Of a stretch of DNA of 64,000 nucleotides, positions 6,001 to 64,000 are shown piece after piece. A program made the position numbers and the translations under genes. Location of the stretch: positions 9,530 to 73,529 of the forward strand of contig LMZT01000038.1 of NCBI GenBank assembly GCA_001567115.1. Direction: 5' to 3'. The notes beneath the pieces were generated by a model. It saw only the letters and a program-made list of their open reading frames with translations, made no database searches and was not told where the DNA came from. Within the stretch, counting starts at the first letter, position 1. The number at the start of each line of letters is the position of its first letter. Origin of the DNA: Candidatus Hinthialibacteria bacterium OLB16 (GTDB taxonomy: Bacteria; Hinthialibacterota; Hinthialibacteria; OLB16).

Positions 6001-6860
6001 ATTATTATTACCTCGAGATATTCGATATTTCCAACCTGGCAATCGAACCCCCACGAGTCGGCCCACCGGTCTTCCTCCTTCAGACCAAAACCGATCTGTT
6101 CGGAGGGGGCGAGGGTGAGGTCAACTCCAGTGTGGCTATTTCGGATGATGCGGGCCTTGCCCTGGTGGGTTCGGAAGGAGATCGCCCGGTCCGGCTGATC
6201 AGCACTGCTGATGGCTCTTCGATCCGTGAGTTTCATCCACCAAGCGGCTCAGGCACCGACAACATCGGTGCCGGCGCAGTGGCTTTTGCCGAACAGGATA
6301 AATCGGTTTTGATTGGCTGGCGGGAAGGATATGCCGAAATGCATCGGCGCCTTGCTCCGGTACGAATCGAAGTCCTTGTTTCTCGATTGGCGGGCGGCAA
6401 GTCAGTCGAAAAAGTCGTCATAAACAATGGGACCTTGTACGTCAAAACGGGTGAGGTCCTTGCCTCGGAAACTCTTGCACAGTACAAGAATGGTTCAGAG
6501 CTGAATGTCACTTCCATTACCTCCCTGCAATCAACGAATCCATCCGTCGCGCAGATTCAGGGCCGCAAGATTGCCATTCCAGCCAATGCTCCCCTGGGTG
6601 GGCAGGCGAATGTTTCTTTCAGCTACAATGACCTGGGGACTGTTCTCGAAACCACTGTCAAACTTGTTGTCGGCGAAAATCAGGTGTCCAGAGGTGATAC
6701 CAATGGCGACTTCACCCTGGACTACCTCGATCTCATTGAGTTCTCGCGCTGGTGGATGCAGAACGAGAACAAGTCCAATGCCGGCTGTGACAAAGTGGAT
6801 GACAGCAAGATAGACGCACGCGACCTTCATTACCTTATCAAGGCCTGGCTTGATAAGTGA
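3..6860 (+). CDS. Giant secreted/surface protein, probably 5'-partial: frame is open to the window edge and the track start at 18 is a GTG. N-terminal beta-helix-like region, multiple WD40 beta-propeller repeats, two or more Big_2 (bacterial Ig-like) domains, and a C-terminal dockerin-like Ca-binding module.
   Basis: 2280-aa ORF. WD40-like repeats (GHSQAVTAVAFTGDGTNLMTGSTDATVQLWK, HEGPVKSIAV...GGEDFRIKIL, HTGAIVSVGF...EDKTMTLWR). Big_2-like segments (NPANRVLSAGDSQAYQVSVIYDDGTRADVTP...). C-terminal GDTNGDFTLDYLDLIEF ... CDKVDDSKIDARDLHYLIKAW resembles a type-I dockerin duplicate. Confidence 0.6.
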   Translation, partial: NCDVNVNSRWLTIEKNATCNVQGNHITADRHLKVGGTLNAGNVLFDFNTRSTWYEPDRFNGINCLDGSISTLDNCTIRGQETRSTGNDNDWSALIYAAPDASIDLTACFFAPPMNSAMPTRFAIRSWSQKALRIARCSFHEQYMAVRLDALPLQGYIHNSNMAGNYFAVMNVIPSMFDAQGNWWGSPTGPAHIQNPGGVGDPVSDNVDYGQSSLAPKGSQLTVLNPTGGQESNTLLVQDPVQKVELYGFRINPGQTTIASAAFRLYSLSGLEASQFTNFKLVKDDNGNQTAGPLEITQAVDASRVVSGQNGIHVFFDSPFTTPADVAKGCILICDLAGVQANDSLSVDMPEYLIESAPGQTIVSQLAETRHRAGPAIWITDPATGPVPDNLTGAIRQNNVVLYAFNLVGTTQQTRALKFTLSEVRNLPRSVITSAALYRDTNADRQYDAGDERIGSPTEIVINSGSGHMGFAETLSMNQAYLLVANFRGLNDGAALTVQLLPNNVFLTAPGNVLGYCSPVNHMADPPYIIAQSDAWNPPANFGASTNQSNFVPLGIRIAPLGRTINSLKITLDSVVGIYPGELSNCRMVWDKNNNGVFDTGEELVGGPGTVLIDGNEGSIQFNTPFVVRGRYLLMADFITLVNGDEMTVSLKPEDVSVPESIRVTGSVQPIRYVVQAGTPDSRSPNMNWTLTFRSPGGGTVIGHYNNAGNKVILGYDTGSAWIFQATANVPVMMFKDHYDKVEYAGFSSDDSSAITVTRDGAVYIWDLTTGAQRSAMFSDLLVSYAVPSPDLSKLMVITEGKGILLDVDNQERLWEYVPGNASVNAIAYSPDGRYILIGSSDKRAYLLDVTNGVEVRRFVGHSQAVTAVAFTGDGTNLMTGSTDATVQLWKTDNGKPVGGPPLATISLQGQESQGATVSPNGTRVAMVTGYGGNAQLRMYNDQGLELYAINLTNESHSNWGGTLENITFDKAGERVIVTSRNSEWARNASFRVENGGYLLSWGPQGRFTPWLSTKPKISLDGERIFEATDWGINVLFRTAGKPIYRISDSLGDKGYDISADGSKAVWMTPQNRLRVSSISEGGSTLILDRDAGFNYNSLTMSDAGENVIAGDRMFSAIGGGLLANYAGPDREAQSAFSADGSLWGFIIPQDHSMVTCRTGDPNAVLYNLMLTEPYTPYKMLYHPDNNRVGCVDSNNGVQFYDMSTDLPVGLYRYQYNSDAAISRDGTLLLIGGRNQVRMYEVRTGRILRYFYPQHSGLADVDVRGVQFARNDTMIMIAWSPNYIELYERSMPVGIEINPANRVLSAGDSQAYQVSVIYDDGTRADVTPSSNSQGDLAGLVSDSAGKASVDGNVVTLLPNASGVIRIQARFRDSGRSFTAEAAINVGQTSLVGLIPHPDSMSMIPGVFREIGYTARYADGYEEDVTENVALTSNRPDDVVIAGQSVKVNLTSIPGNIEVTGHYTDAHGQSASAKTIIQAYGLRTQWERYRITAGGYGLSGAWSPDKKKLAWGSSSGGVAFYNTGVTPSQYKLDRILMAHEGQVIFVDYLSPTTLVSVGREGTVKTWDMITGSTVPVSVYSHDAPLRVAARSGGKLALGDAVGKVAVLNLPTFDLDWSKAFHEGPVKSIAVDNAIVISGGEDFRIKILQRSDGTLNRNLLTHTGAIVSVGFMGANVFFSLSEDKTMTLWRRSDYEVLQRYEYPVVPTGAELINNELYVATTNPNATWIYNMDGLLLRWLEHPPAEGGIVKYLIDPSGKFVLTGRATILKDEVNSFDGSVIKKPSPFGSFQFWEVGRGIFRGSLAHSHPLSAAFASPDKKTLFTQDPKRVIRWSYGVKDATAESVNLLETGYFLGQSFAGLDFSGDAQLLATRVGVSVYLFDTFNALLWKTLHTPGPGPFAISPNRQFLASADWKVRLWDLNNLSQINEEARSVAAVDFRGNTNFVGAVQADNFIGVWNAQGKLRIGMQTTHGPIKLYVNSTGTRCAAITLHVECGAFGDCEYYYYLEIFDISNLAIEPPRVGPPVFLLQTKTDLFGGGEGEVNSSVAISDDAGLALVGSEGDRPVRLISTADGSSIREFHPPSGSGTDNIGAGAVAFAEQDKSVLIGWREGYAEMHRRLAPVRIEVLVSRLAGGKSVEKVVINNGTLYVKTGEVLASETLAQYKNGSELNVTSITSLQSTNPSVAQIQGRKIAIPANAPLGGQANVSFSYNDLGTVLETTVKLVVGENQVSRGDTNGDFTLDYLDLIEFSRWWMQNENKSNAGCDKVDDSKIDARDLHYLIKAWLDK

Positions 6861-36361: not shown

Positions 36362-39300
36362 TTACGAGCAACCGGTCGTTCCACCGCAGGAGGTACATTT
36401 CAGGCAGGTCCCATTCCTTACCATTGTGAACTGCCCGCAGATCGCGCAGGGGTCGCCCTCAAATCCCTTGAGGCGTGCTTCGGCGACACGGCGGTGCCAG
36501 TTGAGCACATCCTCTTTTTCGCTGGCCGCCACACTGGCAGACAAGGCTGTGGCGGATCCATGCGCTGCCTCGACTGAATGGCCATGGCCATTTTTCCCAT
36601 TCCCATTGCCATAAATCAGGCTGCTGCCATTGGCTGGTTCAGCGGCGGTCCCTGGCTGGAAATGGCTGGAGTGGCGGTGCTGGGGGCCGGGGTAAAAAGG
36701 GGAATCGGAGGGAACCATGCGTTCTTCGACAATCTCTTCATCATCGAAAGCCGGCTCGTCATCCGGGCGCCCGAGCGTGTCTCCGCGCAAATCTTCCGGT
36801 TTCACCTGCGCCAGATCGAAACGATCCAGATAAGAAATCGCCAGCTCGCGGAAAATGTAGTCGATCACCGAAGTGCTCATCTTGATATAGGAGTGGCCAT
36901 CCACCCCGCCATTCGGCTCGAAACGGGTGAACACAAAGGCATCGACAAACTCATCGAGCGGAACTCCATACTGAAGCCCCAGCGAAACGGCAATCGCAAA
37001 ACAGTTCATCAGGCTGCGGAAAGCGGCCCCTTCTTTGTGCATGTCAACGAAGATCTCCCCGAGGTTCCCATCGGTGAATTCTCCGGTGCGGAGGTAAACC
37101 TTGTGCCCTCCGACACGCGCTTTCTGGGTGTACCCGGTGCGGCGGTGGGGAAGCCTGCGCCGTTTGGCGAGATACCGGAACACAACACGTTCCGCAATCT
37201 CCTGGGCAGGAGTCTCTGCTTTTGACTCGGTCCATTCGTCATCTTCGAGCAGCTCAGCGGATTGGGCGCTCAATGGCTGGCTGAGCTTGGAACCATCACG
37301 GTACAGTGCGATCGCTTTGATCATCAGTGTCCAGCTCTTGTCATAGGCAGCGCGGACATCCTCCACACTGGCCTGGCTGGGCATGTTGATAGTTTTCGAG
37401 ATCGCTCCGGAAATAAAATGGCTGTGCGGCGGCCATCATGCGCAGGTGGCCTTCCGGAGCGATATAGCGCCGCCCTTTCCGTCCGCAGGGGCTGGCACAA
37501 TCAAACACCGGCAGATGCTCCGGCAGGAGGTGTGGCGCTCCTTCGAGTGTCATCCTTCCGCAGATGGCTTCGTTGGCCTCCTGGATTTCCGTTTCAGTGA
37601 ACCCAAGTTCTTCGAGCAGGTCGAAAGACTGCCCTAACAGGCGCTCCTCGGGAATTCCCAGATGATTCCGGCAGAAATCCTCACCGACTGTGTAGCGGGT
37701 AAACACATAGCGAATATCGAAGGCCGACCTCACCTCCGCTTCGAGGCGTTCCAGGACTTCCTCTGTAAAACCTTTCTCGACCAGTGTATTACGGTTAATC
37801 GGCGTGGGATTGTTGAGAGAGGCTGTCCCGACCAGGTATTCCACCATTTCATCGATCTGCGCATCCGCATACCCAAGGCGATGCAATGCGAGGGGCACGG
37901 ACTGGTTTGCGATCCGGAAATACCCTCCGCCGGCCAGTTTTTTGAATTTCACCAGCGCATAATCCGGCTCGATTCCTGTTGTGTCGCAATCCATCACCAG
38001 GCTGATGGTTCCTGTCGGAGCCAGCACAGTCACCTGGGCGTTGTGGTACCCATATCTCTCGCCGAGATCCAATGCCTGATCCCAGGTTTCACGCGCTGCG
38101 CGCAGAAAATCCTCCGGGCAGATTTCCGGATTGATCGCACAGGGGAAAACAGACAGGCCCTCATATTCATCCTTGGGCGCATTGTATGCCGCACGGCGGT
38201 GGTTCCGGATGACCCGCAGCATGTGCTCCCGGTTCCTGTGGTATCCCGGGAAGGGGCCGAGTTTGTGGGCCATCGCAGCGGAGGTGGCATAGGCTTCTCC
38301 GGTCATCACCGAAGTCACCGCGCCTGTGAGGGCGGCTGCTTCCGGGGAATCGTATGGAATCCCCATCACCATCAGCAGGGTGCCAAGGTTGGCATACCCC
38401 AGCCCGAGTGTTCTGAACTCATAGCTCAACCGGGCGATGGATTGTGATGGAAACTGCGCCATCAGCACCGAAATCTCCAGCGTCATGGTCCACAGGCGGC
38501 AGGCATGACGGAACCCCTCGATATCGAACTTCCCGCTATCGGTATCGTAAAAGGTCATCAGGTTCAATGAGGCGAGATTGCAGGCGGTATCATCGAGGAA
38601 CATGTACTCCGAGCAGGGATTGGAGGCATTGATGCGGCCGTCGGCCGGGCAGGTGTGCCACTCGTTGATGGTCGAATCAAATTGAATGCCGGGATCGGCG
38701 CAGGCCCAGGCGGCATAAGCCACCTGGTTCCAGAGGTCACGCGCGCGGATCGATTTGCTGATCTTCCCATCGGTGCGGCGGGTGAGATTCCACATTCCAT
38801 CCTCTTGAACCGCATGCATGAAATCATTCGTGATGCGCACCGAATTATTGGAATTCTGTCCGGAAACTGTGGCGTAGCCTTCCGATTCCCAATCCGTGGT
38901 GATGTTGGCGAATTCGATCCCGGTGTACCCCTGGGAGGCCAGCTGGATGGCGCGTTGAATATAATTGCCTGGCACCTCATGGAGCCGTGCGGACCGGATC
39001 GAAAGGGCCAGCTCCCGGTTCTTTTTGGCTGGAAACGGTCTTCGCCCTTGAGATTGATATTGGCGAAGCAGGCCTGCATGATGGCGTTCATGTGGTGGCT
39101 GCAGATGCGGCTGCCGGTCACCATGGAGGCCACTTTCTGTTCCTCGCGCACCTTCCAGTTGATGAAGTCCTCGATGTCCGGGTGGTCGATATTGACGACC
39201 ACCATTTTGGCGGCCCGGCGTGTGGTGCCACCGGATTTGATCGCTCCGGCGGAACGGTCGCCGATGCGCAGGAAGCTCATCAATCCCGAGCTTCTCCCGC

Positions 39301-40042
39301 CGCCGGACAGCGATTCGCCGACCCCGCGGATGTCCGAAAAATTCGAGCCTGTTCCTGAACCATATTTGAACAGCCGGGCTTCACGCACCCACAGATCCAT
39401 GATCCCGCCTTCACCCACCAGGTCATCGGCGACCGACTGAATGAAGCAGGCATGTGGCTGTGGCCGCTCGTAAGCGTTGGTCGAACGCATCACCTGGCTG
39501 GTGCGCGATTCGACATAGTAATGCCCCTGGGGCGGCCCTTCGATGCCATAAGCCCAGTGCAGTCCGGTATTGAACCACTGCGGAGAGTTGGGAGCTGCCA
39601 TCTGGGCTGCGAGCGAATAACGCATTTCATCGAAATAGGCGCGCGCATCTTCCTCGCTGCAGAAATATCCGTGTTTCCAGCCCCAATAGGTCCAGCAGCC
39701 AGCCAGGCGGTCAAATACATCCCGGCCATCACGCTCTCCGCCGTAACGTTCCTCCGGGGGGAGTTTTTCGAGGGCTTCTTCATCCGCCACCCGCCGCTGC
39801 AGCCACTGCGGGACCCCTGTCTCCTGAATGTGGCGCAGCCGGGTGGGAACTCCGGCTTTGCGGCAGTATTTCTGGGCCAGGATATCTGTCGCCACCTGGG
39901 ACCATTTCTTCGGCACCTGGATGTCCGGCGCTTCGAAAACCACCGTTCCATCTGTGTTCGTGATTCGCGATACGCGTGGCCCGAACTCGAGCGTATCGTA
40001 TGGATTCGTTCCCGCTTGTGTGAATCTTCTTTCGATTTTCAT
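36362..40042 (-). CDS. nrdJ: Adenosylcobalamin-dependent (class II) ribonucleotide reductase NrdJ. It is split into three ORF-track fragments by two apparent homopolymer frameshifts (~39020-39032 and ~37412-37422).
   Basis: N fragment [59 protein letters not shown] (classic NrdJ start, GGGAGG RBS). Middle fragment [20 protein letters not shown]...[29 protein letters not shown] fragment [20 protein letters not shown]...ALYRDGSK plus a terminal CxxC...CxxC zinc ribbon. The junctions read continuously after single-base correction in a T5 and a T4 run. Confidence 0.85.
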
Positions 40043-40158
40043 CTTTCCGCTCCCTCCCCGCGTCATCCCCGTTGTGACGAGCGCTCCTTGACTGAATATA
40101 GGCGGGCTTCGGCGTTTGATTTCATGAGCACACGATTTCATTCAAGTGTTACAGACTT

Positions 40159-41885: not shown

Positions 41886-43305
41886 TCAACGTTTCTTTTT
41901 CTTCGCCGGCTTGCGTGTGAGGTTTGGCTGGGTCATGGCGATCGGGTCGAGCACCTCTTTGAGCTGCTCCCGGGAAAGGTATCCCTGTTCGAGAATCACC
42001 TCCGGGATCGGTTTGCGTGTCTTCAGGCTTTCCTTGACCACTGCTGCAGCCTTGTCATAGCCAATATAAGGATTCAGGGCGGTGGCGATGCTGGGGCTGT
42101 TTTCGACATACCAGCGGCACCTCTCCACATTGGCGGTGATGCCATCCACACATTTGCGTGCCAGATGGAGCGCCGCCTGAGTCAGGATATCCAGCGATTC
42201 GAGCAGGTTCGATCCCAGCACCGGCATGTGCGTATTCAGCTCCAGCTGTCCGGCGGCCGCAGCCGCAGAAACTGCCGCATCATTGCCGATCACCTGGATG
42301 CACACCATGTTGACCGCTTCGCAGATGGATGGATTGATCTTCCCAGGCATGATCGAAGAACCCGGCTCGACCGCAGGCAGGGAAATTTCATTCAGTCCGG
42401 TGTTCGGGCCTGAAACCATCAGCCGCAGGTCATTGCACAGCTTTCCGATGTCGATGGCGGTGAGGCGCAGCACGGCGGAGAGATGCGCCATGTCCGTCAG
42501 GTACTGCGTGGTCTCCATCGGATCGGCAGGCACCTCATACTTCCGCCCGGTTATTTTCGAAAGGTGCTTCATGATCAATGGCCGAAATTCGGCATAAGTG
42601 TTCAATCCGGTTCCGATGGCGTTCCCTCCCACTCCCAGGCAGCGCAGGAATTTGTCGGTGTCCCGGATGCGCTCGAGGTCCTTTTTCAGGGCCGATGCAT
42701 GGGCCTGAAAGGCCTGGCCGAGTGTGACTGGAACCGCATCCTGCAGGTGGGTGCGGCCGCTTTTCACAATGCGCTTGAACTGGCGGGCCTTTTTTCTCCA
42801 GCGATCCGACCAGGGCCTTGAGCGCATCCAGCAGGCCTTTGGAAAGATCCAGTCCCGCCACACGTATCGAGGAGGGGAATACATTGTTCGTGGACTGCCC
42901 CTTGTTGACATCATCGTTGGGATGGACCAGTCCTCGATCTCCGCGTTTGCCACCCATCCTTTCAGCGGCACGGTACGCTATGACTTCATTGATGTTCATG
43001 TTGCTTGAAGTTCCGGATCCCGCCTGGAAAATATCCAGCGGCAGGGCTTCATGATGCTTTCCTTCCGCGATCTCTTTGCAGGCTGCGATGATCGCTTCCC
43101 CTTTCTTCTTATCGAGGATTCCGAGCTCCATGTTGGCCAGCGCGCAGGCCTGCTTGATCTGTGCGAGAGCGCGAATCTGGGCAGTGTGAAGCCGGCGGCT
43201 GCTGATCTCAAAGTTGTGGATCGAGCGCTGTGTGTGAACTCCGTAAAGGGCATTAGCGGGAACCTGAAGCTCTCCGAGTGAATCCTTTTCGATTCGTGTG
43301 GCCAT
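41886..43305 (-). CDS. fumC: Class II fumarate hydratase (FumC), split into two ORF-track fragments by an apparent extra base in an A6 run (+ strand T6 at 42790-42795).
   Basis: MATRIEKDSLGELQVPANALYGVHTQRS...VHPNDDVNKGQSTNNVFPSS in fragment 1. KSGRTHLQDAVPVTLGQ...GSSIMPGKINPSICEAVNMVCIQVIGND...LNPYIGYDKAA in fragment 2. The junction LVGSLEKK|ARQFKRIV is restored by reading A5. Confidence 0.85.
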
Positions 43306-47628: not shown

Positions 47629-48250
47629 GTGCAGGGGAAAATTCCCAAACCCAAAGACCGGATCAACTATGACATCCGCGAGTCCGAGGTTCGTCTGGTC
47701 GATGAAAATGGCCAGCATGTCGGGGTGATCAACACCCAGGAAGCCATCCGGCGGGCCGAAGCGGCGGGTCTGGATCTGGTGGAAGTATCTTCTGCTTCAA
47801 GACCGTATGTCTGCCGCATCATGGACTACGGCAACTATAAGTATGAACAGGCCAAGAAGCAGAAAGATGCGCGCCGGAAACAGCATGTCATTGATGTCAA
47901 AGAGGTGAAATTGCGGCCACGAATCGACGAGCACGATTATGAGGTTAAAATGAGGAATGCCCGCAAATTCATCCTGCAGAACGACAAAGTGAAATTCGTG
48001 GTCATGTTCCGGGGTCGTGAACGGAACCATTCGGAATTCGGAACGAAACTCCTCTCCCGGGTGATCGAAGAACTTCAGTCGATCGCCATTGTGGAATCCC
48101 GCCCCCAGTCGGAAGGGCGAAACCTGATCATGGTGCTCGCTCCGGATCCCGCGGGAGTGAAAGCCGAAAAGGCCAGGCTGGAGAAACTTAAAAAACTGGA
48201 GGAAAAGGAGGCCGCATCAAGCGCTGCTTCCCCCCAAAAGGAGTTCATAA
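47629..48250 (+). CDS. infC: Translation initiation factor IF-3. In the assembly it reads through, in frame, into rpmI (see findings). True start codon uncertain; non-canonical starts are usual for infC.
   Basis: KDRINYDIRESEVRLVDENGQHVGVINTQEAIRRAEAAGLDLVEVSSASRPYVCRIMDYGNYKYE...FRGRERNHSEFGTKLLSRVIEEL...IMVLAP. Confidence 0.8.
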
Positions 48251-48444
48251 TGAACAAGATGAAGACTCAACGGAGCGCAGCGAAGCGGTTTTCGCTGACA
48301 AAGAAGGGTAAGATCAAACGATCCAAGGCCTATCACAGCCACCTTCTGACTTCGAAAAACACCAAACGGAAACGCGGCCTGCGCAAGGCTACGTATATCT
48401 CCCCTTCGGATGAGGGGCGGGTCCGCCGCATGTTGGGATTGTAA
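48250..48444 (+). CDS. rpmI: 50S ribosomal protein L35.
   Basis: MNKMKTQRSAAKRFSLTKKGKIKRSKAYHSHLLTSKNTKRKRGLRKATYISPSDEGRVRRMLGL. Own RBS AAGGAG 7 nt upstream of the ATG. Confidence 0.8.
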   Translation: MNKMKTQRSAAKRFSLTKKGKIKRSKAYHSHLLTSKNTKRKRGLRKATYISPSDEGRVRRMLGL

Positions 48445-50957: not shown

Positions 50958-52376
50958 ATGACGAACAGTCTCGCTGATCCATCCCTCGAAACCTCCAGCT
51001 CCTGGCTGGGGGGGCTCAAGAATCGTTTCTGGAATGAGCTGGAAGAGCCATCCGGATTTCTGAGGATGCTGCGGCTGTCACGTCCTGTTGCTAATCAGAG
51101 CTGGCTCTGGAGTGACCGCCGCCTGTCGCACCGGCTGGCCTCCCTTGAAAAGCTGGCCTTCTGGAAATCTGAAGAATGGCGCCTCAACCCCGAAATCGAA
51201 TCCACCCGCAGGGAGTTTCTGACCGGCCTGCGTGAATCGATCGGCCCACGGCTGAAAAAGATCGAGAACCTGAATGAACGGCGCCGGATCAACCGGTTCC
51301 TGACACGGGTCGAAGCCAGGCTGGGTGTGGTGGATCCCTATTGCCGCCCCACTCGTGCGCGGGTTGAACTGACCGATGCCTGCAACCTGCGCTGCCCGAT
51401 GTGCCCTCAGTCTTTCTGGGAATGGGACCGCCGACATGCCGATGAATGGATCCTGGAACGGGCCAGAAGCCTGTACCCCTGGCTGACCCAGCTCGATTTC
51501 ACCAGTTTCGGCGAAACCCTGCTCTCTCCATTGTTTCGCAAGGCCCTGCGTGACTCGCCTTCCCATGCTCACACACTGCTGATCACCAATGGGCTGCTGG
51601 TCAATGACGATATGGCCGAGTTCATAGTCAGCAACAATCTCAGCGAACTGCATGTTTCGATCGATTCCGCATCCCCTGAAGCGTATCTTGCCATGCGTGG
51701 CGTGGATGGGTTCAAACGGGTCATCGAAAACTGCCGCAGGCTGGTCCGAGCCAAACTCAAAGCCGGCAAACAGGAACCTGTTCTGGTGTTCAACTTCACA
51801 CTCAACCGAAAAAACTTCGAGGAACTCGAACCCCTGATCCAGCTCGCGGCTGAAATTGGTTTTCAACGGGTTCATGCCAATTATCTGCTGGTCTGGCGGC
51901 CGGATTTGCGCGGGGATTCGATCTTCTGGATCCGTGAACAGACCTGCGAGCTGCTGGACCGTTGCGATGGCCTGGCGGCACGCTCCGGGATCGAATTCTT
52001 CCATCCTCCCAAACCCCTGGCGGAGCATGAAGGGCGAGAGCGTTTCGAACGGTTCTGTCCCGAAGCCTGGGAGTTCATCCATATCCGCGCGGTCGGGCGG
52101 ATCGCGGTGTGCTGCATGTCTGCAGATGAGTTCGAAGCACCCCCTGAAATGTCCTGGGAAGAGATCTGGGACTGTCCCGCCTACCAGAACTTCCGCCGAA
52201 TGGTCAATCTCCCGGGCGATGAAGCGCCCCCGTTGTGCCGGAACTGCCACTTCGGCCGTGACATCCAGCCCGGTGACCCGCGCTTCCACTTTTTCGAAGC
52301 GACCCTCGATGAACACCTCACCGGCCAGGCCAAAGATCCTTACCTTCGCAGCCAGGGCGAATGCCTGACCCTCTGA
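50958..52376 (+). CDS. Radical SAM enzyme with C-terminal SPASM/twitch-type Cys-rich domain and a ~130-aa N-terminal extension (peptide/protein-modifying maturase candidate).
   Basis: CNLRCPMC (CxxxCxxC) radical-SAM cluster motif after the N-terminal extension. C-terminal cysteines FCPEAW...AVCCMSADEF...WDCPAYQNF...PLCRNCHF. 3' end overlaps the next gene by 16 nt. Confidence 0.7.
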   Translation: MTNSLADPSLETSSSWLGGLKNRFWNELEEPSGFLRMLRLSRPVANQSWLWSDRRLSHRLASLEKLAFWKSEEWRLNPEIESTRREFLTGLRESIGPRLKKIENLNERRRINRFLTRVEARLGVVDPYCRPTRARVELTDACNLRCPMCPQSFWEWDRRHADEWILERARSLYPWLTQLDFTSFGETLLSPLFRKALRDSPSHAHTLLITNGLLVNDDMAEFIVSNNLSELHVSIDSASPEAYLAMRGVDGFKRVIENCRRLVRAKLKAGKQEPVLVFNFTLNRKNFEELEPLIQLAAEIGFQRVHANYLLVWRPDLRGDSIFWIREQTCELLDRCDGLAARSGIEFFHPPKPLAEHEGRERFERFCPEAWEFIHIRAVGRIAVCCMSADEFEAPPEMSWEEIWDCPAYQNFRRMVNLPGDEAPPLCRNCHFGRDIQPGDPRFHFFEATLDEHLTGQAKDPYLRSQGECLTL

Positions 52377-53421
52377 ATCTTCCTCTGATGAAAGGACACC
52401 AATCTGTGGCCCGTTATTTCCTTACCCTCATGGCGGTTTTCCTCCTGTTTCTTCAGGGGTGTACGACTGAACCTTCCAGCCCACCGCCGCCAGCCGGCCA
52501 GGAGCCGAAAACAGGTGGTTCGTCTTTATCGGATACCGCTTCCCAGGCGCCCAAGCCAGCACCTCCAGTCAAAAACCTTTACGATGAAAAAGCGGATGCC
52601 TCCAGACAGGTCGCCGATGCCCTTCACGAAGCCCGCCAGGACCATAAGCATGTCCTCATCCAGTGGGGTGGCAACTGGTGCCCCTGGTGCTTCAAACTCC
52701 ATGCAGTGCTCGAGTCGGATCGCAGCCTGCGGGGCCTTCTCCGCGCTGAATATGTCTATGTGCCCATCGAGAGCAAGAATGTGGATTTGGCGGCCTCCTA
52801 TAAGGCCCCGGTCAACAGTGTCCCCTTCCTGACTGTGCTCGATGCCGATAATAAAGTGCTGGCCAACCAGCCCACCGATCCTCTCGAGGATGGCGACCAT
52901 TATGATGCGGCCAAAGTCAAAGCCTTCCTCGAGCAGTGGAAGCCAGCCCCTCTCGATGCGGAGCAGCTGCTGGCGGCTGCACTCGGACAGGCACGCAAAG
53001 ACCAGCGCTCGATCCTGATTCACTTCGGCGCGCCTGGTGCATCTGGTGCAAGCGCTTCGATCGCTTTCTCAGCCGGGAGGATATCCAGCCGCTGATCTCT
53101 CCGGATTTCATCAACCTCAAAATCGATATCGAACGCATGGCTGGTGGAGAAAAGGTCTACCGGCAGGTTCGCAAACAGGGGCAGGGAATCCCCTGGTTTG
53201 CCATCCTCGATGCCAATGGTGAGGCTGTTTCCACCTCGGATGCTCCCGCTGGGAATATCGGATTCCCCATCAGCCCGGGTGGCATCGATCACTTCCTGGG
53301 AATGTTAGGTTCTTCGGCTCACCATCTCTCCAACGAGGGAAAAGGGAAAATCCAGGCGGCGCTTCAGGCGGAGGCAGATCAGGTTCTCACCTCCATGCGC
53401 ACCTCCGGAAGACCCAACTGA
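52361..53421 (+). CDS. Lipoprotein with two thioredoxin-like domains (WCPWC and WCIWC CxxC motifs; TlpA/DUF255-like thiol:disulfide oxidoreductase), interrupted by an apparent C2/C3 homopolymer indel near 53031-53036.
   Basis: Lipobox LFLQGC. Domain 1 HVLIQWGGNWCPWCFKLH. After the frame switch, domain 2 ILIHFGAP|WCIWCKRFDRF repeats the same pattern. The two ORF-track pieces 52361-53095 and 52936-53421 join once one C is added. Confidence 0.65.
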
Positions 53422-54804: not shown

Positions 54805-57800
54805 ATGCAATCCATGCGATCTGCACTAATCGCCGGGATCCTGTTGCTTGCGATGGTCGTCGCTTTTGTCCCGGCCTCTCAGGCGGCAACCTACACCAGT
54901 CAGTTGTTCCTGACATCGGAGCCGGGTGGAAATGTGAGGATTCAATTCACTGCCACTGGTGTCGCACCGATGACAGCCAATATTTACCGGATCAACTCCG
55001 GCATTATGCCGCTTTTGGCTCAATTCAATGCGGGAACCCTGGTCGCCCCAAACATTCCAGTGACTTCCGGGGTGCCCAAGAACATCATCAACAGCCCCAA
55101 TGAGGCAACCAACCAGGGGAATGGTTTTCTTCCAGGAACAACCACTGTCAGCGGTGGCCAGTACTGGTACCTGATCCGGGTCTACGAGCCTGGGCCGGTG
55201 ACAACCAATTCGATTATCCGGGGTGCGGTGGCGGATGAGAATCCGACTGCCACCATCATTCCGGGTGGGCTGGTTGTGACCCCCTGCGGTCCGGGGCTGA
55301 ATGCCACATCCGTGGTCGAGTTCAGTTTCCCGAACCCGTTCGACGAGGTGGTCGATGCCGGCGCAAACATGGGGTTGAACCCGGGAGCGGTGAAGCAGTT
55401 CGCTTTTCCGAGCTCGGCCTACCATTTCCATTATCGCCTTTACCGGGTGGCCAAAGCGGTTCCCTTTAATGTGATCACTGACCCGGTCTGCGCCAATGAT
55501 ATCACCCCGGCCAGCCCGGCGAATGAAATTTACCCGTATAACCGCGGCGCCATCACAGTCCTTACCGACACCTCCGCCGCTCCTGGCACCGCTTATGCCT
55601 ATGGCCTTCGACTGATCGATACAGTCGGCAACCAGAATGGCGGTTTCCCACTCACTGCCAATCAAACCTTCCAGGCAATCAGCGCTCCGATCGATGCCAC
55701 TGTCACCGAAAAGCTGACACCCTGCAATGCCTATAACGAATTGACTTTCACTGTCGATGCATCCTCGATGCCCGGTGGTGTCTATCATGTATATGTCTCG
55801 ACAACAGGGCCAGTCAATTCGGGCAACCCCGGAACCGCCTTGACTCCTCCCGGCGGCCTTCCTGTTACCCAGGACTCGATTACTTACATCCATGATTCCA
55901 ATTCGGTCGTTCCCCGTGCGCTTGGGGTCACCTACTGGTATGCAGTCAGGCTGCAAATCCCCGGCCCGGTCGTTTCCTGTTATTCGAATTCTCCGAGTGT
56001 CTTCACCACTCTCTTCAATCCGGTTCCTGTGGTCACCATCGATCCGCCGACCTGCACAGTTGTCCATGGCCAGGTGACAGTCTCTGGAACCGCAACCGAT
56101 GCCACCTCGGAAATCATGGGTGTGACTGTCTGTGTCAACACCTCCACTGTTCCCGCCTGTGTGGTCGCTTCCGGAACCGGGACCTGGACCGCGGTTGTTC
56201 CTGTCGATCCAGCCCTTGCAGACAGTTCAGTTCTCTCTGTCACCGTTTCCGCCTTCAATGATTGCGGTCAGATCGGAACCGCTACCACCACTTTTTGTGT
56301 CGACAATGAGTGTGTCGGCCTGGTAACACCGATGGCCTTCTCGCCTTCCGGTGGAATCATTGGCCCGGGCGGTTTGAGCTTCAGTGGGCAGATTGCCGAT
56401 GATGATTTCTCGACACTCTGCGATGCCGGAATCAATGAAGTTGTCATTACCGCCACTGCTACAGGTGTTTCTTATTCTTATTCGCCGGTTGTCGCTCCTC
56501 AGACCGGAGTTTTTGTGTTTAGTGATAACCAGCTGTTCGGCCTGGCTGATGGCCAGACAACCGGCCTGGTTCTGAGCGCCACTGATGGCGCCTGCGAAAT
56601 TAACAATACCTGCAGTTTCCCGATTGGTTCCGTCACTGCCGACTTCTCCGCTCCGGTGTGCGCCATTATCGCCCCGGTTTCGGGCTCCCTCGGCACCGCC
56701 CATCTGATCAGTGTGACCGCCGAAGATATCGGCGCGGCAGGCATTGCCGATCTGTGTGTCATTATTTCTGGACCGGTTTCCTCGGTCACCTGTGTCGGAT
56801 CGGCAACCTCTTACACCTCGCTGTTCGCACCGGGCGTGGATGGAACCTATACCATCATCACCCAGGTGACAGATACTGTGGGCAACACCTCGACCTGCGG
56901 TCCGGTGGTGGTCACCATCGATGTGGCTCCACCAATCGTTGCAGTCACCAGCCCGCTTCCACCAAATATTGGCGTAAATGGCAGCTTCCTCCTCCAGGGA
57001 ACCGGACAGGACCTCGGTTCTGGAGTCTGTGAGGTCACTGTCGAATACACCACCTCATCCGGCACATCGTTTGTCGTGGCAACAGTGATTCCTCCCTGTG
57101 CGCTCAATGTCAACTGGTTCGTGACGATTCCGGTGGATCCCCTTCTCAATGATGACGATATCTTCGATGTGACTGTCACAGCGGAAGATGGATCCGGCAA
57201 TGTCGGTTCCACTACGGAATCTTATTTCGTTGATGACACCGCTTCCTGCCCAGTTCTGAATACACCGATTGCAGGCTCAACTGTTATTGTTGGACCTGGC
57301 GGGCTCCCGGTCGATTGGATGGGAAGCGATGATGATTTCCCCGGACCATTCGATACCGGGGTGAGCCAGGTATACGCTTCGGCAACAACTCCATCAGCTG
57401 TCCTGTTCTCTTCCGCACCACCCCAACTCGGTATGGCAAGTGGGACCAACACCTTCATGCCGGGGAGTGGGCCGGGAGCGCCGGGCCAGTTCTTCCTCGA
57501 TCTGGATGATGGTGAAACCGATGTCATCAATGTCTGCCTGGTCGATGGAGCGACAGCCACTCAGAATGTCTGCTGTGTCACCTTCGAGGTGATCATCGAC
57601 CTGACTGCGCCGGTTTGCCTCCTGACATCACCAGCCAATGGCACCTGCTTCAATTTCGCCAATACAATCCTCGGAGCCACAGATTTCGTGGTGACCGCGA
57701 CAGACACAGTGGCCGGCCTTGCTGAAATCGGCATTAATGTCAGTGATGCCAGTGGTGTCATTGCAACAGTGACCGCAACCGCTTCAGGCATCGTGGACAC

Positions 57801-60800
57801 AGCCATCCTCAACTACGGCATCGCGCTCCTGCCGGATGGAACCTACACAATCACCTCATCCGCCACCGATACCGTTGGCAATGTCGCGCAGTGCGGGTCG
57901 ATCGTCGTGACTGTGGATAATAACAGCCCGGTTGCCGCCATCCTCAACCCGCCACAGGCTGTGGTGAATGGCACCGTGGAGGTGAGTGGCTCTTCATCGA
58001 ATGCCACCTCACTTATGTTGTCCTATCCGGGTATTGGCGGTGGTCTGCTTTCCCCGCTGGATGCAACGACCACGGCTATGGTCCCTCCGACCGTAGTCTT
58101 CGACACCTCACTGCATGATATGAATTCCGAGGTGCTGGTTCCGTTCTCACTCGGATTCACTTTCCCGTTCTATGGCAATTGCTACGATTCCGCGTATATC
58201 TCTGCACGCGGTCTCCTCGAGTTCCAGAATCCCACATCACCAGGTGCAACACCGACTGTTCCCCTCGTCAACAGCATCACTCCCAAGGTGATGGGTCTGT
58301 GGTCGGCGATCGACGCTCCGGTGATCAGGGTGGTTCAGTCACCTACCGCCAGTATGATGACCGCTTCATCGTCGATTTCACCAATGTCCCTGATGAAACA
58401 GGTTCCGGCACCAACACGTTCTCGATCACACTTTACGAAACAGGTGCTGTGAGCTTCATTTATGCCGCGACTCCCGATGTGACTTATGATTACCCCAGCG
58501 CAGTCGGTATTTCCGGCGGCGTCAATGACCAGGATGTCACCGGTTTTGTTCCTGAAGCACTGGTCAGCAATGGTGTCGACCGTCCATCCATCAATCTGTC
58601 AGGGTTGACCGGCTTCCCGCTTCTTGCTGTTTCTGAATCGATGGCGGTGTACGAGATCTTTGAAGTCTCTTCGTTTGATCTCGGTACCGGTTACAGCGCC
58701 CAGGGAACCACCACCAGCATTCCGGTTCCAGTTGGACTTGGTGGTGCCTGGAGTGCGACAATTCCTGTGACAAGCCTGTTCCCGGTGGATGGAAGCGCTC
58801 AGGATGGAGATCCTTATAATATCTTCATTACACCCTTCGGCGGCTGCAATGGAAATTCTGTCGGTGATTGCTTCAACATGATCTATGTCATCGACCAGAC
58901 TGTCCCGCAGGTCGATTTCGTCAGCGCATCGGTTCCTGCCTATTCCTGTGTTTCGAACATCTTCGATGTGACCTACGAGGCCAATGATGCCCTCTTCCCA
59001 GGATGGCGGATTAACTCTGGGATCAATGCGGTCACCGCTGAGGTTTACCAGCTTGGTGCCTTTGTGGCCAATATTCCTGTGGTTGCAGTTCCGCCTTTGC
59101 CAACAGTGCCAAACAGTGGACCAGTTTCTCTCCTGATCAATGTGGATCCGAACAACATCCCAGGCCTCCAGCCAGGTTATTTCGGAATCGATGTGGTTGC
59201 GGAGGATACTGCCATTGATCTGCCCAACATTAATTCCTGGGCGGGCGGAGCTCCACCAGAAGTGTATTTCTATGACCCGTTGGGGCCTGTTTCTCAGCCG
59301 GTGTGCTCCAGGCTCTTCATTGCTGCTGTCACTGAAATCGCGGGTGCTTCCCAGACTTCGATCTATGAACTCGATCCGGATACCGGTGATTTGAGGCAGG
59401 AAATTGCCCTCCCGGCGATTATGTCTTCAACTCTCGGTTGTGCTTTAGGCTTCAATGGACAGAATCTGTACTATGCACCGACACGGGCTGCCAGCTCCGG
59501 TTCGGTTCTCTATTCCTTCGCAGCTGTTACAGGACCAGCCCCGGCAGTCGCTTCGGTGGTCCTGCCGGTCAGCCAGATTACCGGTATCGGTGCAGAAGAC
59601 GATCTTGTCTTTGTCAATGGACCTGTCGGCCAGAATTTCGTTTATGTTCTTGATGCGTCAACATTGATCCTCCAGGGGACCCAGACTGCATATAACGTAG
59701 CCCCTTGGACCGAAATTGCTGGTGCTGAGGTTGGATCCGGTATCTTCAACAGGACCTATGTTGCCAGATTGGCCGATCCTCCCGGGCCTGCAACGATGCT
59801 CGATATGTTCTACGAGACCTTCCCCGGTGGTCAGCTGTTCATGACCTTTGGAACACCAAACTTCCGAACCACAGGTCTTGGATTCAGTGGAACACGCCTC
59901 TTCCAGGGACGCCTGCCGGATAATGTCATCCGTGAGGTTGTCACCACCACACCCCATGCGGTCTACAATAGTGGTTTCCTGCTGAATTCATTCGGGGTTC
60001 CCAATGGAGCCACAGTGTGCGCAGTTGCTGCGGGTCCGATGATTGGCGAATGCACTCTCTGCCTGAATGATCTTCCAGCCAATCTTGCAACAGCGGTCAC
60101 CGATACCGCCGCCTGCGGAATCTCACAGGTCGACATTTATGCAATGCCATACGGCGCAACAGTGCCGTACCTGATCAATTCTGCAACCACATTGCCTGAT
60201 CTGGCGGTTCGTCCTTATGTACCGACTTCACCGTCAGCGGCTGTAGCCTATGGCCAGTTGACAGCGGCCTCGGCAGCCCAGTTCTTCCCGGCTGGCGAGG
60301 GTGAAATTCTCGTCTACTCCCAGGCCACGGATATTGCTGGGAATGTCGAATCACTCGGAGGCGCCCTCTCTCGCGGCATCACCTATCGTGTTGACTTCCG
60401 TGAGCCAAGAGTGGTCTATCTGGATACAGACCCCCATGCCACACGGGGCGATTATCCGAACAATGTCAATGTCACTCTGGCCATCGAGGATGTGGCTCTT
60501 GTGACATCCACTGTCTCCTTGACCGCCCAGTTCAGCACATTGGTTGGCAATGTCGATGTTGCCCTGCCGCTCGTTGTCAGTGGCACTGCGGTGAGTGGTC
60601 CGAACATTGTCACCACAACCTTCACGACCAGCTTCAATCCGGCTGGACTGGTGCTTTCGACAACTCAGTCGGCCTACATCGACTTCCTCATTGCTGCGAC
60701 TGACGAATGCCAGAATACAACCAGCACGGTTCTTATCGACCGCTTCATCGTCGACAATGCCACTCCTGAGGCCCAGCTGCCGGCTCCATCCTATCCGGCA

Positions 60801-63800
60801 TGCGATGTAATCAGCACTCTGCCGTCCTTCGCAGGAACCATTTACTGGTCAATGACCAATCCGTTGGTCTGGTCGGAAAATGAAATGGCTGGCATGAACC
60901 TGTGGGATGCCACCTATGTTGCGCAGCCTACTTCAGGCATCAATGCCGCCCTGCCGCATTACCTGGCTGGTTCCAATAATGCGCCGTTCTTCGTCGAACC
61001 GAGGACTCGTGCAAGCGACCTTCTTGGCCCGATTGCTGAACCGGATATCGCATCCTCACCGTCGGGTATTGCGACAGTTGAAGTCTACTATGCGACTGGA
61101 CCGGCCAGCTGCACCACGGTTGCCGGCTTGAGCTTCATCCACCTGGTCTCCCCGATTGGTGTTCGCACCAACGTCGTCGAGGTTCAGGGTGGCGGCTATG
61201 TTCCTCTGTCACTGCCCAGCGCAGCTGTTGAGGCCACACCGGAATTCGCATGGAATACCGCGATTCTGCCGCCGACCATTCTGAATGCGTCGCCGATTAA
61301 CAACTATTACTACCTCAAGACAATCATCAGTGACGGTGCGGGCAATGCACTTGATCCGATCTTCGGACCGTTCATCGTCCTGGATACTCTGTCTCCGGAA
61401 AAACCAATCATCACATGCAAACCTCTCATCGGGACACGTGACGTTTATATCGACTGGGAGCGTCCACCTTATGACAATGTCGGTGTGGTGGGTTATGAAA
61501 TCTGGAGAACAAGGCACCCGGTTGATGATGTGCTCGATGCCAACCTCTCGATATCGTCCTTCGACCTGATCGATGATATCCCGGCGTATGATGCCAATGG
61601 CCTCAGATACACCGAGTATCTGGATCAATCTCGCCCGGCTGAGGGTGTCTATGCGTACTTCATCGCAGCCTACGACGCGGCTGGCAACGGCAAGACTGGT
61701 GGAGCGGGACTCCCGCCGAACAGGTCGAATATCGTCACCGCTGCTCCGTATGACTTGATCGATCCGTATCCAGTCACTGACCTTCGTGTCCGTGCGGGTG
61801 AACCGGGAGATGGAATCCGCCTGTCCTGGAGCGTGCCTAACAAGCCAGGGCCGGATCAGCTGCCTGGACCGTTCCGTCCATTGGGTGATGACGTAGCCAT
61901 TACCGAATGGGAGATCTTCCGTGCAGCACGCCAGACACCGATCACACAGGTGGATATCCTGGATCAGGACCTCGATCCGACCACAAACCCGATCGATGAG
62001 AAGGTCCATATGATCGCACGCTGCCATAACATGCTGGTCTTCGACAACTACGCTCAGAGCTCTCGAGTCCGCCTGCAACTGACAGAGGTGCTGGATGAGC
62101 ACGCAACTATTCTTCCCGCAACTGTCACCAGTTCGGCGTCATCGGCGACCTCCTACCTCCTAGTCTTTATGGAGCCGCTCGATGTAACCAAGGTGACTCT
62201 TGCCAGCCCGCAGATTCCTGCTCACCCGGATGGGCCGGTAACCCGTATTCAGAACATGACCACTGGACAGACCTACAAGTTTGTCCGCAAGGTCAAGCGC
62301 GAAGGCCTCAGCTGGGTTATCGAGATCGAAGCACCGGATGCAGCTTCTCTGCCCAAGATGAACGAAGAAGTCCATGTGGATTACCTCACCGAGGAACGGA
62401 CCTTCGTCGATACGACCGCTGTTCCGGGTTACACCTTTACCTATGCTGTTTTGGCACGGGATGCTGCGGGTAACCGCTCCATCCTCAGCCTGCAGCCTGG
62501 CCCGAACTCCGGTATCGAGCGCACCACCGTGTGCCTGGATACATCCGCTCCAGAGGCAATCGACAGTCTCCTTGCCGATGCTGATTGCGGTGGTGTCACA
62601 GTCTCGTGGCAGGTGCCGCCAGTGGATAATACCGGTGTGGCGGGATATGACGTTTATCGTCGTGAAGGCCTGCTGCCGATCGATGTCCTTTCGCCAACGG
62701 ATCTGATTGCCCAGTTCCAGTTTGCGCATCAGCACATCACGCCGGCAACATCACCAATTAATGTGACTCTTCCGGCCGCCTTCTCGCCGTACCTGCTCAA
62801 GGTGTACGACACCACAACCCAGAAACTGCTGGTGCAGGGTGTCGATTACACTCTTGCAGGTAATTTGATGACATTGACCGTTCAGCAGACCGGCGACTTC
62901 TACCACGGCATTGATGTGGTCAGTTTCGATCCGGCCTACTCGCTCTGGAATGGCTATGGCTTTGATGGACAGTTGAAGTATGTCGATTCATCCATCACTG
63001 AAGGCGCCAAGTACAACTATGTGGTGGTGCCCGTGGATGCCTGGGGCAACGCCGCCTGCATGTCCAACAATGCCTTTGCCGTTGCAGCGGACTGCACACC
63101 GCCGGCAACTCCGGTTGTCTCGGTGAATTCGCTCTGCCCAGGCACGCAGGATGAAGTGCTCGTAACAACACTTGATCCGGATGTCGCACGTGTCTGTGTC
63201 TACGATGCCGCACCGCCACTGGGCGATGTCATCTCCTGCCAGGAAGACCTGGAACGGGATGGAAGCTTCCGCATCCCTGTCGGTGACAACCTCTTCTCTG
63301 GTCTCTGGGTTGTTGCAATCGACTTCCAGGGCAACACAAGCCCGGTCTCAATGGCGTTCAACGATGTGACTCCTCCAGCCGCCGCGATGGCTGCCAATGT
63401 CAACGTGTTCATGAACCCGCCTGGAACAGACGATGCCCTGTCTGTCACCACCGGCGATCCGGATGCTGTCCGCGTGAATGTCTATCGTGATGACAGCCTT
63501 GAAAATCTCGTGGATTCCGCCGCGGATGGCGATGATGGCTTTGTGGATGGTGTCTGGAACCTGAATCTGGGTGACAACCTGTCCAGCACCTTCTTCGTCA
63601 CGATCCTCGATGCGGCCTGCAACGAAAGCGATGACTACGCGATCACCAACGATGTCACTGGACCTTGGGCCTGCACCAAAGTCGAGGTTCAGAACAACAC
63701 AACAGGCTCTGGCTGCATGAGGGTCCCGGTTGAAGATACCCTGACCCTGTGTGTCGGACCGGATGTGGTCATGGTCGATGTCTTTGCGGATGCCTCGCTC

Positions 63801-64000
63801 CTGACACCGGTAACCAGCGCCGCAGTGGCGGTTGGCCCAGCCGGTGGATGCGTCGGCCCGATCCCGATCGGAAACAATGCCAGCTTCATTCCTGGATCAC
63901 TGAATGGCGTCTATGTCGTTGTTGAAGACAGTGCCGGCAACATGAGCCAGGCCGTCTTTGCAGCGATCGACATCTCTGCGCCATTGATCTCCGAACTCTC
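54805..64000 (+). CDS. Giant secreted adhesin-like protein (more than 3060 aa, 3'-partial) built from more than 20 tandem Ig-like repeat units. It has one apparent homopolymer frameshift at ~58317-58323, after which the ORF continues stop-free to the window end.
   Basis: RBS GAGGAGGAG before ATG 54805. Signal peptide MQSMRSALIAGILLLAMVVAFVPASQAAT. Recurring [AT]xDx[AV]GNxS...VxVDxxxP unit ends (TDTVGNTSTCGPVVVTIDVAPP, ATDTVGNVAQCGSIVVTVDNNSP, AEDGSGNVGSTTESYFVDDTASCP, ARDAAGNRSILSL, VPVDAWGNAAC...). Frame 1 ends with garbage at 58452. Frame 0 from ~58320 (DQGGSVTYRQYDDRFIVDFTNVPDETGSGTNTFSITLYE...) has no stop to 64000 by manual translation. Confidence 0.75.

Follow-up and report, generated by a model that had tools for sequence, protein, structure and literature searches.

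Near the downstream end of a 64,000-nucleotide stretch of the genome assembly of the uncultured Candidatus Hinthialibacteria bacterium OLB16 (contig LMZT01000038.1, positions 9,530 to 73,529 of the forward strand; hereafter the window), an open reading frame (ORF) of considerable length closes at position 58452, while a second and longer frame, which contains no stop, runs on to the edge of the sequence. Do these two frames belong to one gene or to two, what changes the frame between them, and what kind of protein do they encode? Our comparisons indicate that they are very probably parts of a single 13.2-kb gene, interrupted on paper by an artefactual frameshift at position 58315 that reflects a residual Ion Torrent under-call of a base run. 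In Speth et al. (2016; PMC4821891), OLB16 appears as the 'OP3' bin (LMZT00000000); the phylum Candidatus Hinthialibacterota was later named after OLB16 (PMC9324843).

A long open frame and its intact relatives

The upstream ORF (54703/54805..58452, + strand) occupies the forward frame whose codons begin at positions leaving a remainder of 1 after division by three (pos%3==1). In the frame with remainder 0 (pos%3==0), the last stop lies at 58116, and the sequence then stays open from 58119 to 64000, a run of 1,960 codons (1,893 if counted from 58320). With a stop in about 0.04 of random codons, a run of this length has a chance expectation of about e^-78; the other two forward frames each contain dozens of stops across the same interval. 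The two frames overlap by 334 nt, the second being -1 relative to the first. That the long frame does not appear among the listed ORFs has a mechanical cause, because the listing program skips ORFs that run off the source sequence. The 18 ORFs of at least 60 aa that were listed within 58591-63889 all lie inside the long frame, and the two largest antisense examples (297 and 191 aa) are interrupted by stops in distant orthologs, in which the sense frame is open over the same region. These short ORFs are shadows of the long frame.

The joined frames encode 3,065 aa inside the window, and this fused translation matches an intact protein of 4,388 aa (P0001) at 98% identity and full (100%) coverage. 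The gene for P0001 is uninterrupted on a syntenic 100-kb contig from ENA (L001), where the order is thrS, infC, rpmI, rplT, pheS, a radical-SAM gene, a thioredoxin-like gene, trpF, the giant gene and a SurA-like gene; the genes that precede the giant gene on this contig agree with those of the window. P0001 belongs to a cluster, formed at 90% identity, of 25 members, at least six of which are intact at 4,385-4,388 aa, and the 5' part of the OLB16 gene is collinear and gap-free with the intact proteins of these other metagenome-assembled genomes (MAGs). All nine conspecific proteins that cover the junction pass through it in a single frame, reading LWSAIDGSGDQGG / LWSAIDGSGDQGGSVTYRQYDD. The two distant orthologs, one from a binchicken MAG (L002, 55% identity) and the other a protein of 5,642 aa (P0035, 44% identity; L007 6001-22929), read LWTSLDASGAQGG and LWSALDASGVQGG at the same place, again without interruption. 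Measured against the ENA contig, the ratio of nonsynonymous to synonymous polymorphism (pN/pS) is 0.12-0.15 upstream of the junction and 0.13-0.21 downstream. These values are similar, about 0.13 on either side, and both halves of the gene are therefore under similar purifying selection.

Both halves are already public as hypothetical coding sequences (CDSs), and intact copies are present in sister MAGs. Translation of 54805-58449 is identical to GenBank KXK38573.1 (1,215 aa, hypothetical protein), including its out-of-frame tail, and a reading that begins with the GTG at 58449 reproduces, without a difference, the first 1,850 aa of KXK38574.1 (3,173 aa, hypothetical protein). The latter continues for another 1,323 aa beyond the window and ends about 3.97 kb past it, near position 67970 in window coordinates; the stretch 54805-64000 holds the first 3,065 codons of the whole gene. 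The PheS encoded in the window is likewise identical to its GenBank counterpart, KXK38567.1. A first-pass annotation of this DNA, made from the letters and a list of ORFs, had read the second frame as free of stops from about 58320 to the window end and had explained its omission from the list by the want of a stop inside the window. It had taken the short ORFs at 58591-63889 for shadows, and the two frames for one gene encoding an incomplete protein of at least 3060 aa whose frame would have to be followed downstream. A recount found no in-frame stop, the rule of the listing program itself accounts for the omission, and the frame does not close immediately beyond the window, so these claims stand, with the full length now placed at 4,388 aa.

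The family to which the protein belongs is very narrow and lineage-restricted. An exhaustive HMMER search of 1.84 billion representative sequences, with the translation of window positions 58320-61919 as the query, returned 15 proteins at E<=1e-3, of which five reached E<=1e-30. By this query, which covers the central 1,200 aa of the protein, there are only five clear relatives; we count P0001, P0035, P0002, P0039 and L002 as family members.

Origin of the frame change at position 58315

A blastn alignment of the window with the ENA contig spans 19.2 kb at 97.9% identity and contains seven gap positions. The sequence at 58315 is ATCGAC-GCTCC in the window and ATCGACGGCTCC in the relative, so that one G of a GG pair is absent (GAC-GC versus GACGGC). 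Restoring this base gives ...AID-G-S-G-DQGG... in place of ...AID-A-P-G..., and D-G-S-G is invariant in all relatives. The junction peptide of the restored protein is …SAIDGSGDQGGSVTYR, and the break sits inside a conserved NIDO-like domain. The first-pass annotation had also proposed an indel in a run of G between the two frames. A one-base G indel does exist, at 58315 and not in the CCGG at 58318-58321 where it had been placed, 5 nt further downstream.

OLB16 was sequenced on the Ion Torrent PGM only and assembled with CLC, and its authors mention 'persistent frameshifts, common in IonTorrent data' (Speth et al., PMC4821891). Set against four independent assemblies (ENA L001, JGI L003, ENA L004 and NCBI L005), the window has five uncompensated single-base differences. 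In each of them it is the window that lacks the base, and each falls in a run of 2-7 identical bases (Table 1); over 21 kb, no uncompensated indel distinguishes L003, L004 and L005 from one another. Genes are broken or fused by four of the five deletions. The ORF at 47629-48444 (271 aa), for example, contains IF3_N, IF3_C and the entire ribosomal protein L35, encoded in the relative by separate, overlapping infC and rpmI genes, and the thioredoxin-like gene at 52361-53421 is represented by ORFs of 244 and 161 aa, versus a protein of 338 aa in L001. Pfam matches point to similar damage in two further genes on the - strand: a class II ribonucleotide reductase (36362-40141) is spread over two or three overlapping ORFs, versus a single 1,226-aa gene in relatives, and a fumarase (Lyase_1 and FumaraseC_C; 41886-43305) is cut in two. 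Together the differences bear the indel signature of Ion Torrent data, namely assembly-private, one-directional, run-associated deletions that break conserved genes. Given these deletions, every frame-dependent feature, split gene or fusion in the window should be distrusted, including the IF3-L35 fusion.

We favor a sequencing artefact at 58315 because the relatives read through the junction, because the data come from Ion Torrent alone, and because deletions in base runs also affect housekeeping genes of the window. Several observations weigh against it. The error is inferred from a comparison of assemblies. The change from GG to G concerns a run of only two bases, and Ion Torrent errs less often there than in long homopolymers; the indel-correction script and manual curation of the original authors left the site as it is (PMC4821891). 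In addition, the copy of the gene in the COP1 MAG is split at another place, into 1,086 and 3,297 aa. Because this second copy is also broken, real disruptions of the gene are conceivable, and the COP1 split itself may be either another assembly error or a real disruption. The COP1 halves, from a Candidatus Omnitrophica bacterium, are deposited as GenBank MCE7908842.1 and MCE7908843.1.

Genes for long surface proteins are often inactivated. A real mutation in the OLB16 population of Olburgen, leaving a recent pseudogene or a truncated product of 1,215 aa, would fit this general pattern, the retention of the frameshift through indel correction and manual curation, and the presence of a different break in COP1. 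We nevertheless consider it unlikely. All nine conspecific sequences are intact at the site, pN/pS downstream of the junction equals that upstream, and the underlying data are from Ion Torrent only. Moreover, one-base deletions of the same kind occur in the genes for ribonucleotide reductase, fumarase and infC/rpmI, which cannot all be pseudogenes. Alternatively, programmed -1 ribosomal frameshifting or transcriptional slippage could let the cell make the full-length protein from a gene with the deposited sequence. The direction of the shift and the 334-nt overlap would suit such a mechanism, but the site, GACGCTCC, is not a long homopolymer and contains no X XXY YYZ heptamer; the sole in-frame heptamer, TTTCCCG, lies at 58161, 150 nt upstream. 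Every relative is single-frame at the junction, and there is thus no conserved recoding signal. With neither a slippery heptamer at the site nor a two-frame arrangement conserved in relatives, programmed -1 frameshifting was rejected, and we regard recoding in general as extremely improbable.

The arrangement in GenBank, two separate adjacent genes for proteins of 1,215 and 3,173 aa (KXK38573.1 and KXK38574.1), is hardly credible either. The second CDS starts at a GTG within a conserved domain and without a signal peptide, the tail of the first is out of frame and occurs in no relative, and the gene is undivided in orthologs at 44-98% identity. The start annotated at 58449 is not a genuine one, and the tail of the 1,215-aa CDS is a frameshift product and not a genuine protein. 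An artefactual frameshift within one gene remains the reading that we carry forward. More generally, a long ORF that seems to be missing at the edge of a window, combined with a change of frame, can be purely an artefact of a listing rule and of sequencing chemistry.

Modules of the protein and its C-terminal repeat

The layout of the protein was derived from self-comparison and local iteration of hidden Markov models (HMMs), and is summarized in Table 1 with the other features of the locus and the deletion sites.

Table 1. Parts of the giant gene, modules of its product, and single-base deletions in the window. Positions are those of the window unless residues are given.
Feature	Position	Strand	Basis or remark
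5' part, codons 1-1170	54805..58314	+	Frame pos%3==1; equals first 1,170 aa of KXK38573.1
Sec-type signal peptide, MQSMRSALIAGILLLAMVVAFVPASQA	54805-54885	+	Read from the sequence itself
Duplicated Ig-like super-module (aa 420-736 resembles 724-1066)	56062..58014	+	Self-BLAST, E down to 9e-15
NIDO-like domain, aa ~1095-1265	58087..58598	+	Straddles the frameshift; conserved in orthologs; three extra copies in P0035
Frameshift site, single G versus GG in relatives; codon GGC (Gly1171) truncated	58315	+	blastn versus L001
Out-of-frame tail (…APVIRVVQSPT…KQVL*) and stop of the deposited 1,215-aa CDS	58315..58452	+	Tail in no relative
3' part within the window, codons 1172 to ~3066	58317..64000	+	Frame pos%3==0; cut by the window end
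GTG annotated as start of the second CDS (KXK38574.1)	58449..58451	+	Inside the NIDO-like domain
Beta-propeller-like stretch, aa ~1505-1760, low confidence	59316..60083	+	AlphaFold2 model, Foldseek; no Pfam match
Irregular beta modules with FN3-like signatures and five D-x-x-G-N motifs, aa ~1830-2765	60291..63098	+	No Pfam match at threshold
Three complete ~95-aa bacterial Ig-like repeats, aa 2767-3062	63102..63989	+	Local HMM iteration
Second propeller-like stretch	Residues ~3170-3400, beyond window		
Six further copies of the ~95-aa repeat	Residues 3461-4091, beyond window		
Six copies of the ~45-aa repeat	Residues 4089-4381, beyond window		
GG deletion	18551		Truncates a GH43 gene
T7 deletion	29278		Directly upstream of a start codon
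C7 deletion (C6 in the window)	48229		IF3-L35 fusion
CCC-to-CC deletion	53032		Splits the thioredoxin-like gene
GG deletion	58315	+	Splits the giant gene

Within the window, the architecture is heterogeneous and does not consist of some 20 uniform units. The first-pass annotation had expected the Ig-like repeat architecture of the upstream ORF to continue past the frameshift in about 20 more units. Part of the protein does appear to be a tandem array of bacterial Ig-like domains, as in giant adhesins, but the portion of the window after the frameshift holds only seven D-x-x-G-N motifs and three complete copies of the ~95-aa repeat. The proposed HMM search for Ig-like families was productive at the N-terminal side, where Big_13 and Big_3_3 of Pfam reach their cutoffs and Big_3_2 falls below its own. 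These matches all lie in residues 630-1060, the sole region with database domain matches; Big_6 stayed sub-threshold and FN3 was not found. A match to an OmpL47-type barrel model of NCBIfam in the Ig-like super-module was also below cutoff. Past the frameshift, no match to Pfam or NCBIfam reaches threshold. When the protein was cut into 478-aa slices and scanned against Pfam with E up to 10, only weak Ig-like matches emerged, with no FN3, propeller or NIDO match, and phmmer found no match to the whole protein among PDB sequences. The irregular beta modules at 60291..63098 are collinear with the distant homolog P0002.

Profiles built from the modules themselves have matches of known structure. 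The profile of the ~95-aa repeat (28 copies) matches the biofilm-associated protein Bap (7dm0, E=4e-5) and SiiE, a giant adhesin of Salmonella (2yn3, E=4e-4), and on three of the 28 units Pfam Big_6 gives E=0.001-0.005, which is below its cutoff. The NIDO-like profile, from eight copies, matches residues 47-148 of RemA (PDB 8gl6_D) at E=1e-5. The Pfam model for nidogen-like (NIDO) domains, PF06119, responds weakly to five of the eight copies, the best at E 0.067 and 13.6 bits versus a cutoff of 25; the motif layout F-x-F-P-F-Y-G … G-G-x-x-x-Y is conserved. The extra NIDO-like copies of the ortholog P0035 are of two sequence types, and they show that the family grows by internal duplication of modules. 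Mismatches between the window and the ENA contig peak in this region as well, reaching 105 per kb in 57807-58807 (0-55 per kb elsewhere), a peak centred on the NIDO-like domain. Because the majority consensus of seven intact proteins of the cluster matches the window, it is P0001 that holds a divergent allele there, and the peak may reflect recombination or diversifying selection.

AlphaFold2 (AF2) models built on four to five sequences are all beta and poor, with mean predicted local distance difference test (pLDDT) scores of 46 and 54. For this reason, we use their Foldseek matches only qualitatively, to speak of 'chains of beta-sandwiches' or of 'propeller-like' folds. In the first model, pLDDT rises to ~70 in residues ~1505-1760, and the Foldseek matches include YncE, BT1954, NHL and WD40 propellers. 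For the second model (residues 3400-4388), the matches are to chains of Ig/FN3 domains, among them GhpA, a large adhesion protein, Bap and SiiE.

The C-terminus is made up of six copies of GxYxLDGxGG…(P)YFGFD(I/V)ARDLE, or more fully G-x-Y-x-L-D-G-x-G-G-x-H … P-Y-F-G-F-D-I-A-R-D-L-E. It ends in …FDVARDLELLRNAPQD, and all five family members conserve the array right up to its final residues. The first-pass annotation had supposed that a sorting signal of the type IX secretion system (T9SS), PEP-CTERM or autotransporter kind would lie beyond the window, and this expectation was not borne out. In Pfam and NCBIfam scans, neither the complete protein nor the final 300 aa of five family members showed a T9SS (por_Secre_tail-type) signal. 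There is no NCBIfam match to PEP-CTERM and no hydrophobic helix in the C-terminal sequence, and no Pfam or NCBIfam model for a 12-stranded autotransporter barrel, RTX, the type I secretion system (T1SS) or LPXTG is matched. The last 300 aa of the five members have no match among PDB sequences. No model of the ~45-aa repeat was found in Pfam, NCBIfam or PDB sequences, and a literature search for its motif strings returned no relevant paper.

A scan of JGI metagenome contigs uncovered 87 relatives of the C-terminal domain at 30-60% identity. In the 51 other loci in which a stop codon is visible, the match ends at most 37 residues from the stop in 42. The proteins that carry the repeat are between 295 and more than 1,400 aa long, and their N-terminal domains are mutually unrelated, comprising Amidase_2, HYDIN/ASH-type Ig arrays, TIG, FG-GAP, GH5-like domains and a zinc-peptidase-like motif. 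Because the module ends so many unrelated secreted proteins, one of them a peptidoglycan amidase (Amidase_2), a role in envelope binding suggests itself. We propose tentatively, as a possibility and no firmer than that, that the ~45-aa repeat is an undescribed and widespread module for anchoring proteins to the cell envelope or for sorting them. If it is, the lineage-restricted family of 4-5.6-kaa proteins would be its largest cargo. This unmodelled repeat is the only feature of the gene that is of wider interest.

Possible function and comparison with known systems

The product is a lineage-restricted addition to the class of giant Ig-like-repeat surface proteins. It is a further example of a very large surface protein, rich in beta structure and for the most part without annotation, from a candidate phylum related to the Planctomycetes-Verrucomicrobia-Chlamydiae (PVC) group. 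Whether it acts as a surface-anchored, adhesin-like fibre seems to us an evenly balanced question. In such a fibre, the N-terminal signal peptide would direct the protein over the inner membrane via Sec, and the long chain of Ig-like and FN3-like beta-sandwiches would form an extended stalk. The NIDO-like (RemA-like) domain and the two beta-propeller-like domains may act as binding heads, and the six-fold ~45-aa repeat at the C-terminus would retain the protein on the cell envelope. The bacterium is apparently diderm, because the window encodes LpxD and the adjoining gene just past its end encodes a SurA-like protein. This speaks against the fibre, as no outer-membrane export route was found for a protein of 4,388 aa in an apparent diderm. 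It also counts against it that the functional reading leans on the poor AF2 models and that most of the protein has no family match.

Bap and SiiE provide the closest parallel in the repeats. Like them, the protein combines tandem ~95-aa repeats, putatively beta-sandwiches, and the strand motif D-x-x-G-N-x-S with a size of several thousand residues. In this case, however, such repeats make up only 9-11 of ~40 modules, and the copies are 20-40% identical, with Pfam Big_6 sub-threshold. The OLB16 protein also differs in having an N-terminal Sec signal, in lacking both the C-terminal T1SS/RTX signal that SiiE has and the LPXTG anchor found in Bap, and in the additional presence of NIDO-like and propeller-like domains. 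RemA, a mobile gliding-motility adhesin of Flavobacterium johnsoniae, resembles it in the domain that straddles the frameshift (8gl6_D), and both are large surface proteins with Ig-like modules. The relationship is confined to this one domain, and RemA, a T9SS cargo, bears a C-terminal sorting domain, of which there is none here.

The model of residues 3400-4388 found its best Foldseek matches in the grappling-hook protein GhpA of Aureispira (9fly, 9flw and 9flp), with E down to 6e-10. GhpA, which exceeds 5,000 residues, is likewise a chain of Ig-like domains. With TM-scores of 0.11-0.18, 12% identity and a model at pLDDT 54, the likeness indicates nothing beyond a 'chain of beta-sandwiches' and is no evidence of a hook or of predation. 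Candidatus Hinthialibacteriota is among the phyla that often carry very large genes (West-Roberts et al., 2023; bioRxiv 10.1101/2023.11.21.568195). The products of the very large genes of Omnitrophota and PVC bacteria described in that study are also mostly unannotated and rich in beta structure, but they measure at least 10,000 aa versus 4,388 aa here, and we liken the two on these general grounds.

The SLH, CWB2 and choline-binding repeats are non-covalent cell-wall-binding arrays at the C-terminus of proteins. The arrangement of the ~45-aa repeat may be analogous to theirs, in that a short repeat is arrayed three to seven times at the C-terminus behind variable N-terminal enzymes or binding domains. 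Unlike those families, to which it has no sequence match, the repeat is at present a putative binder.

The giant gene has the same neighbors in three lineages that span 44-98% identity: trpF precedes it at one end, and at the other are genes for a SurA-like peptidyl-prolyl isomerase (PPIase) and a 536-aa PMT_2-like membrane protein (L001 23298-25900; L002 10328-12927; L007 23016-25638). The last of these loci, L007, is that of P0035, with the order trpF, giant gene, SurA-like and PMT_2. The distant homolog P0002 (L006) is found in a different gene context. Because the whole region is syntenic and the context of P0002 differs, we do not count these neighbors as evidence of function.

At the opposite end of the window lies a second very large ORF (18-6860, + strand; 2,280 aa), which has many Pfam matches to WD40 and beta-propeller families and is possibly truncated by the window start.

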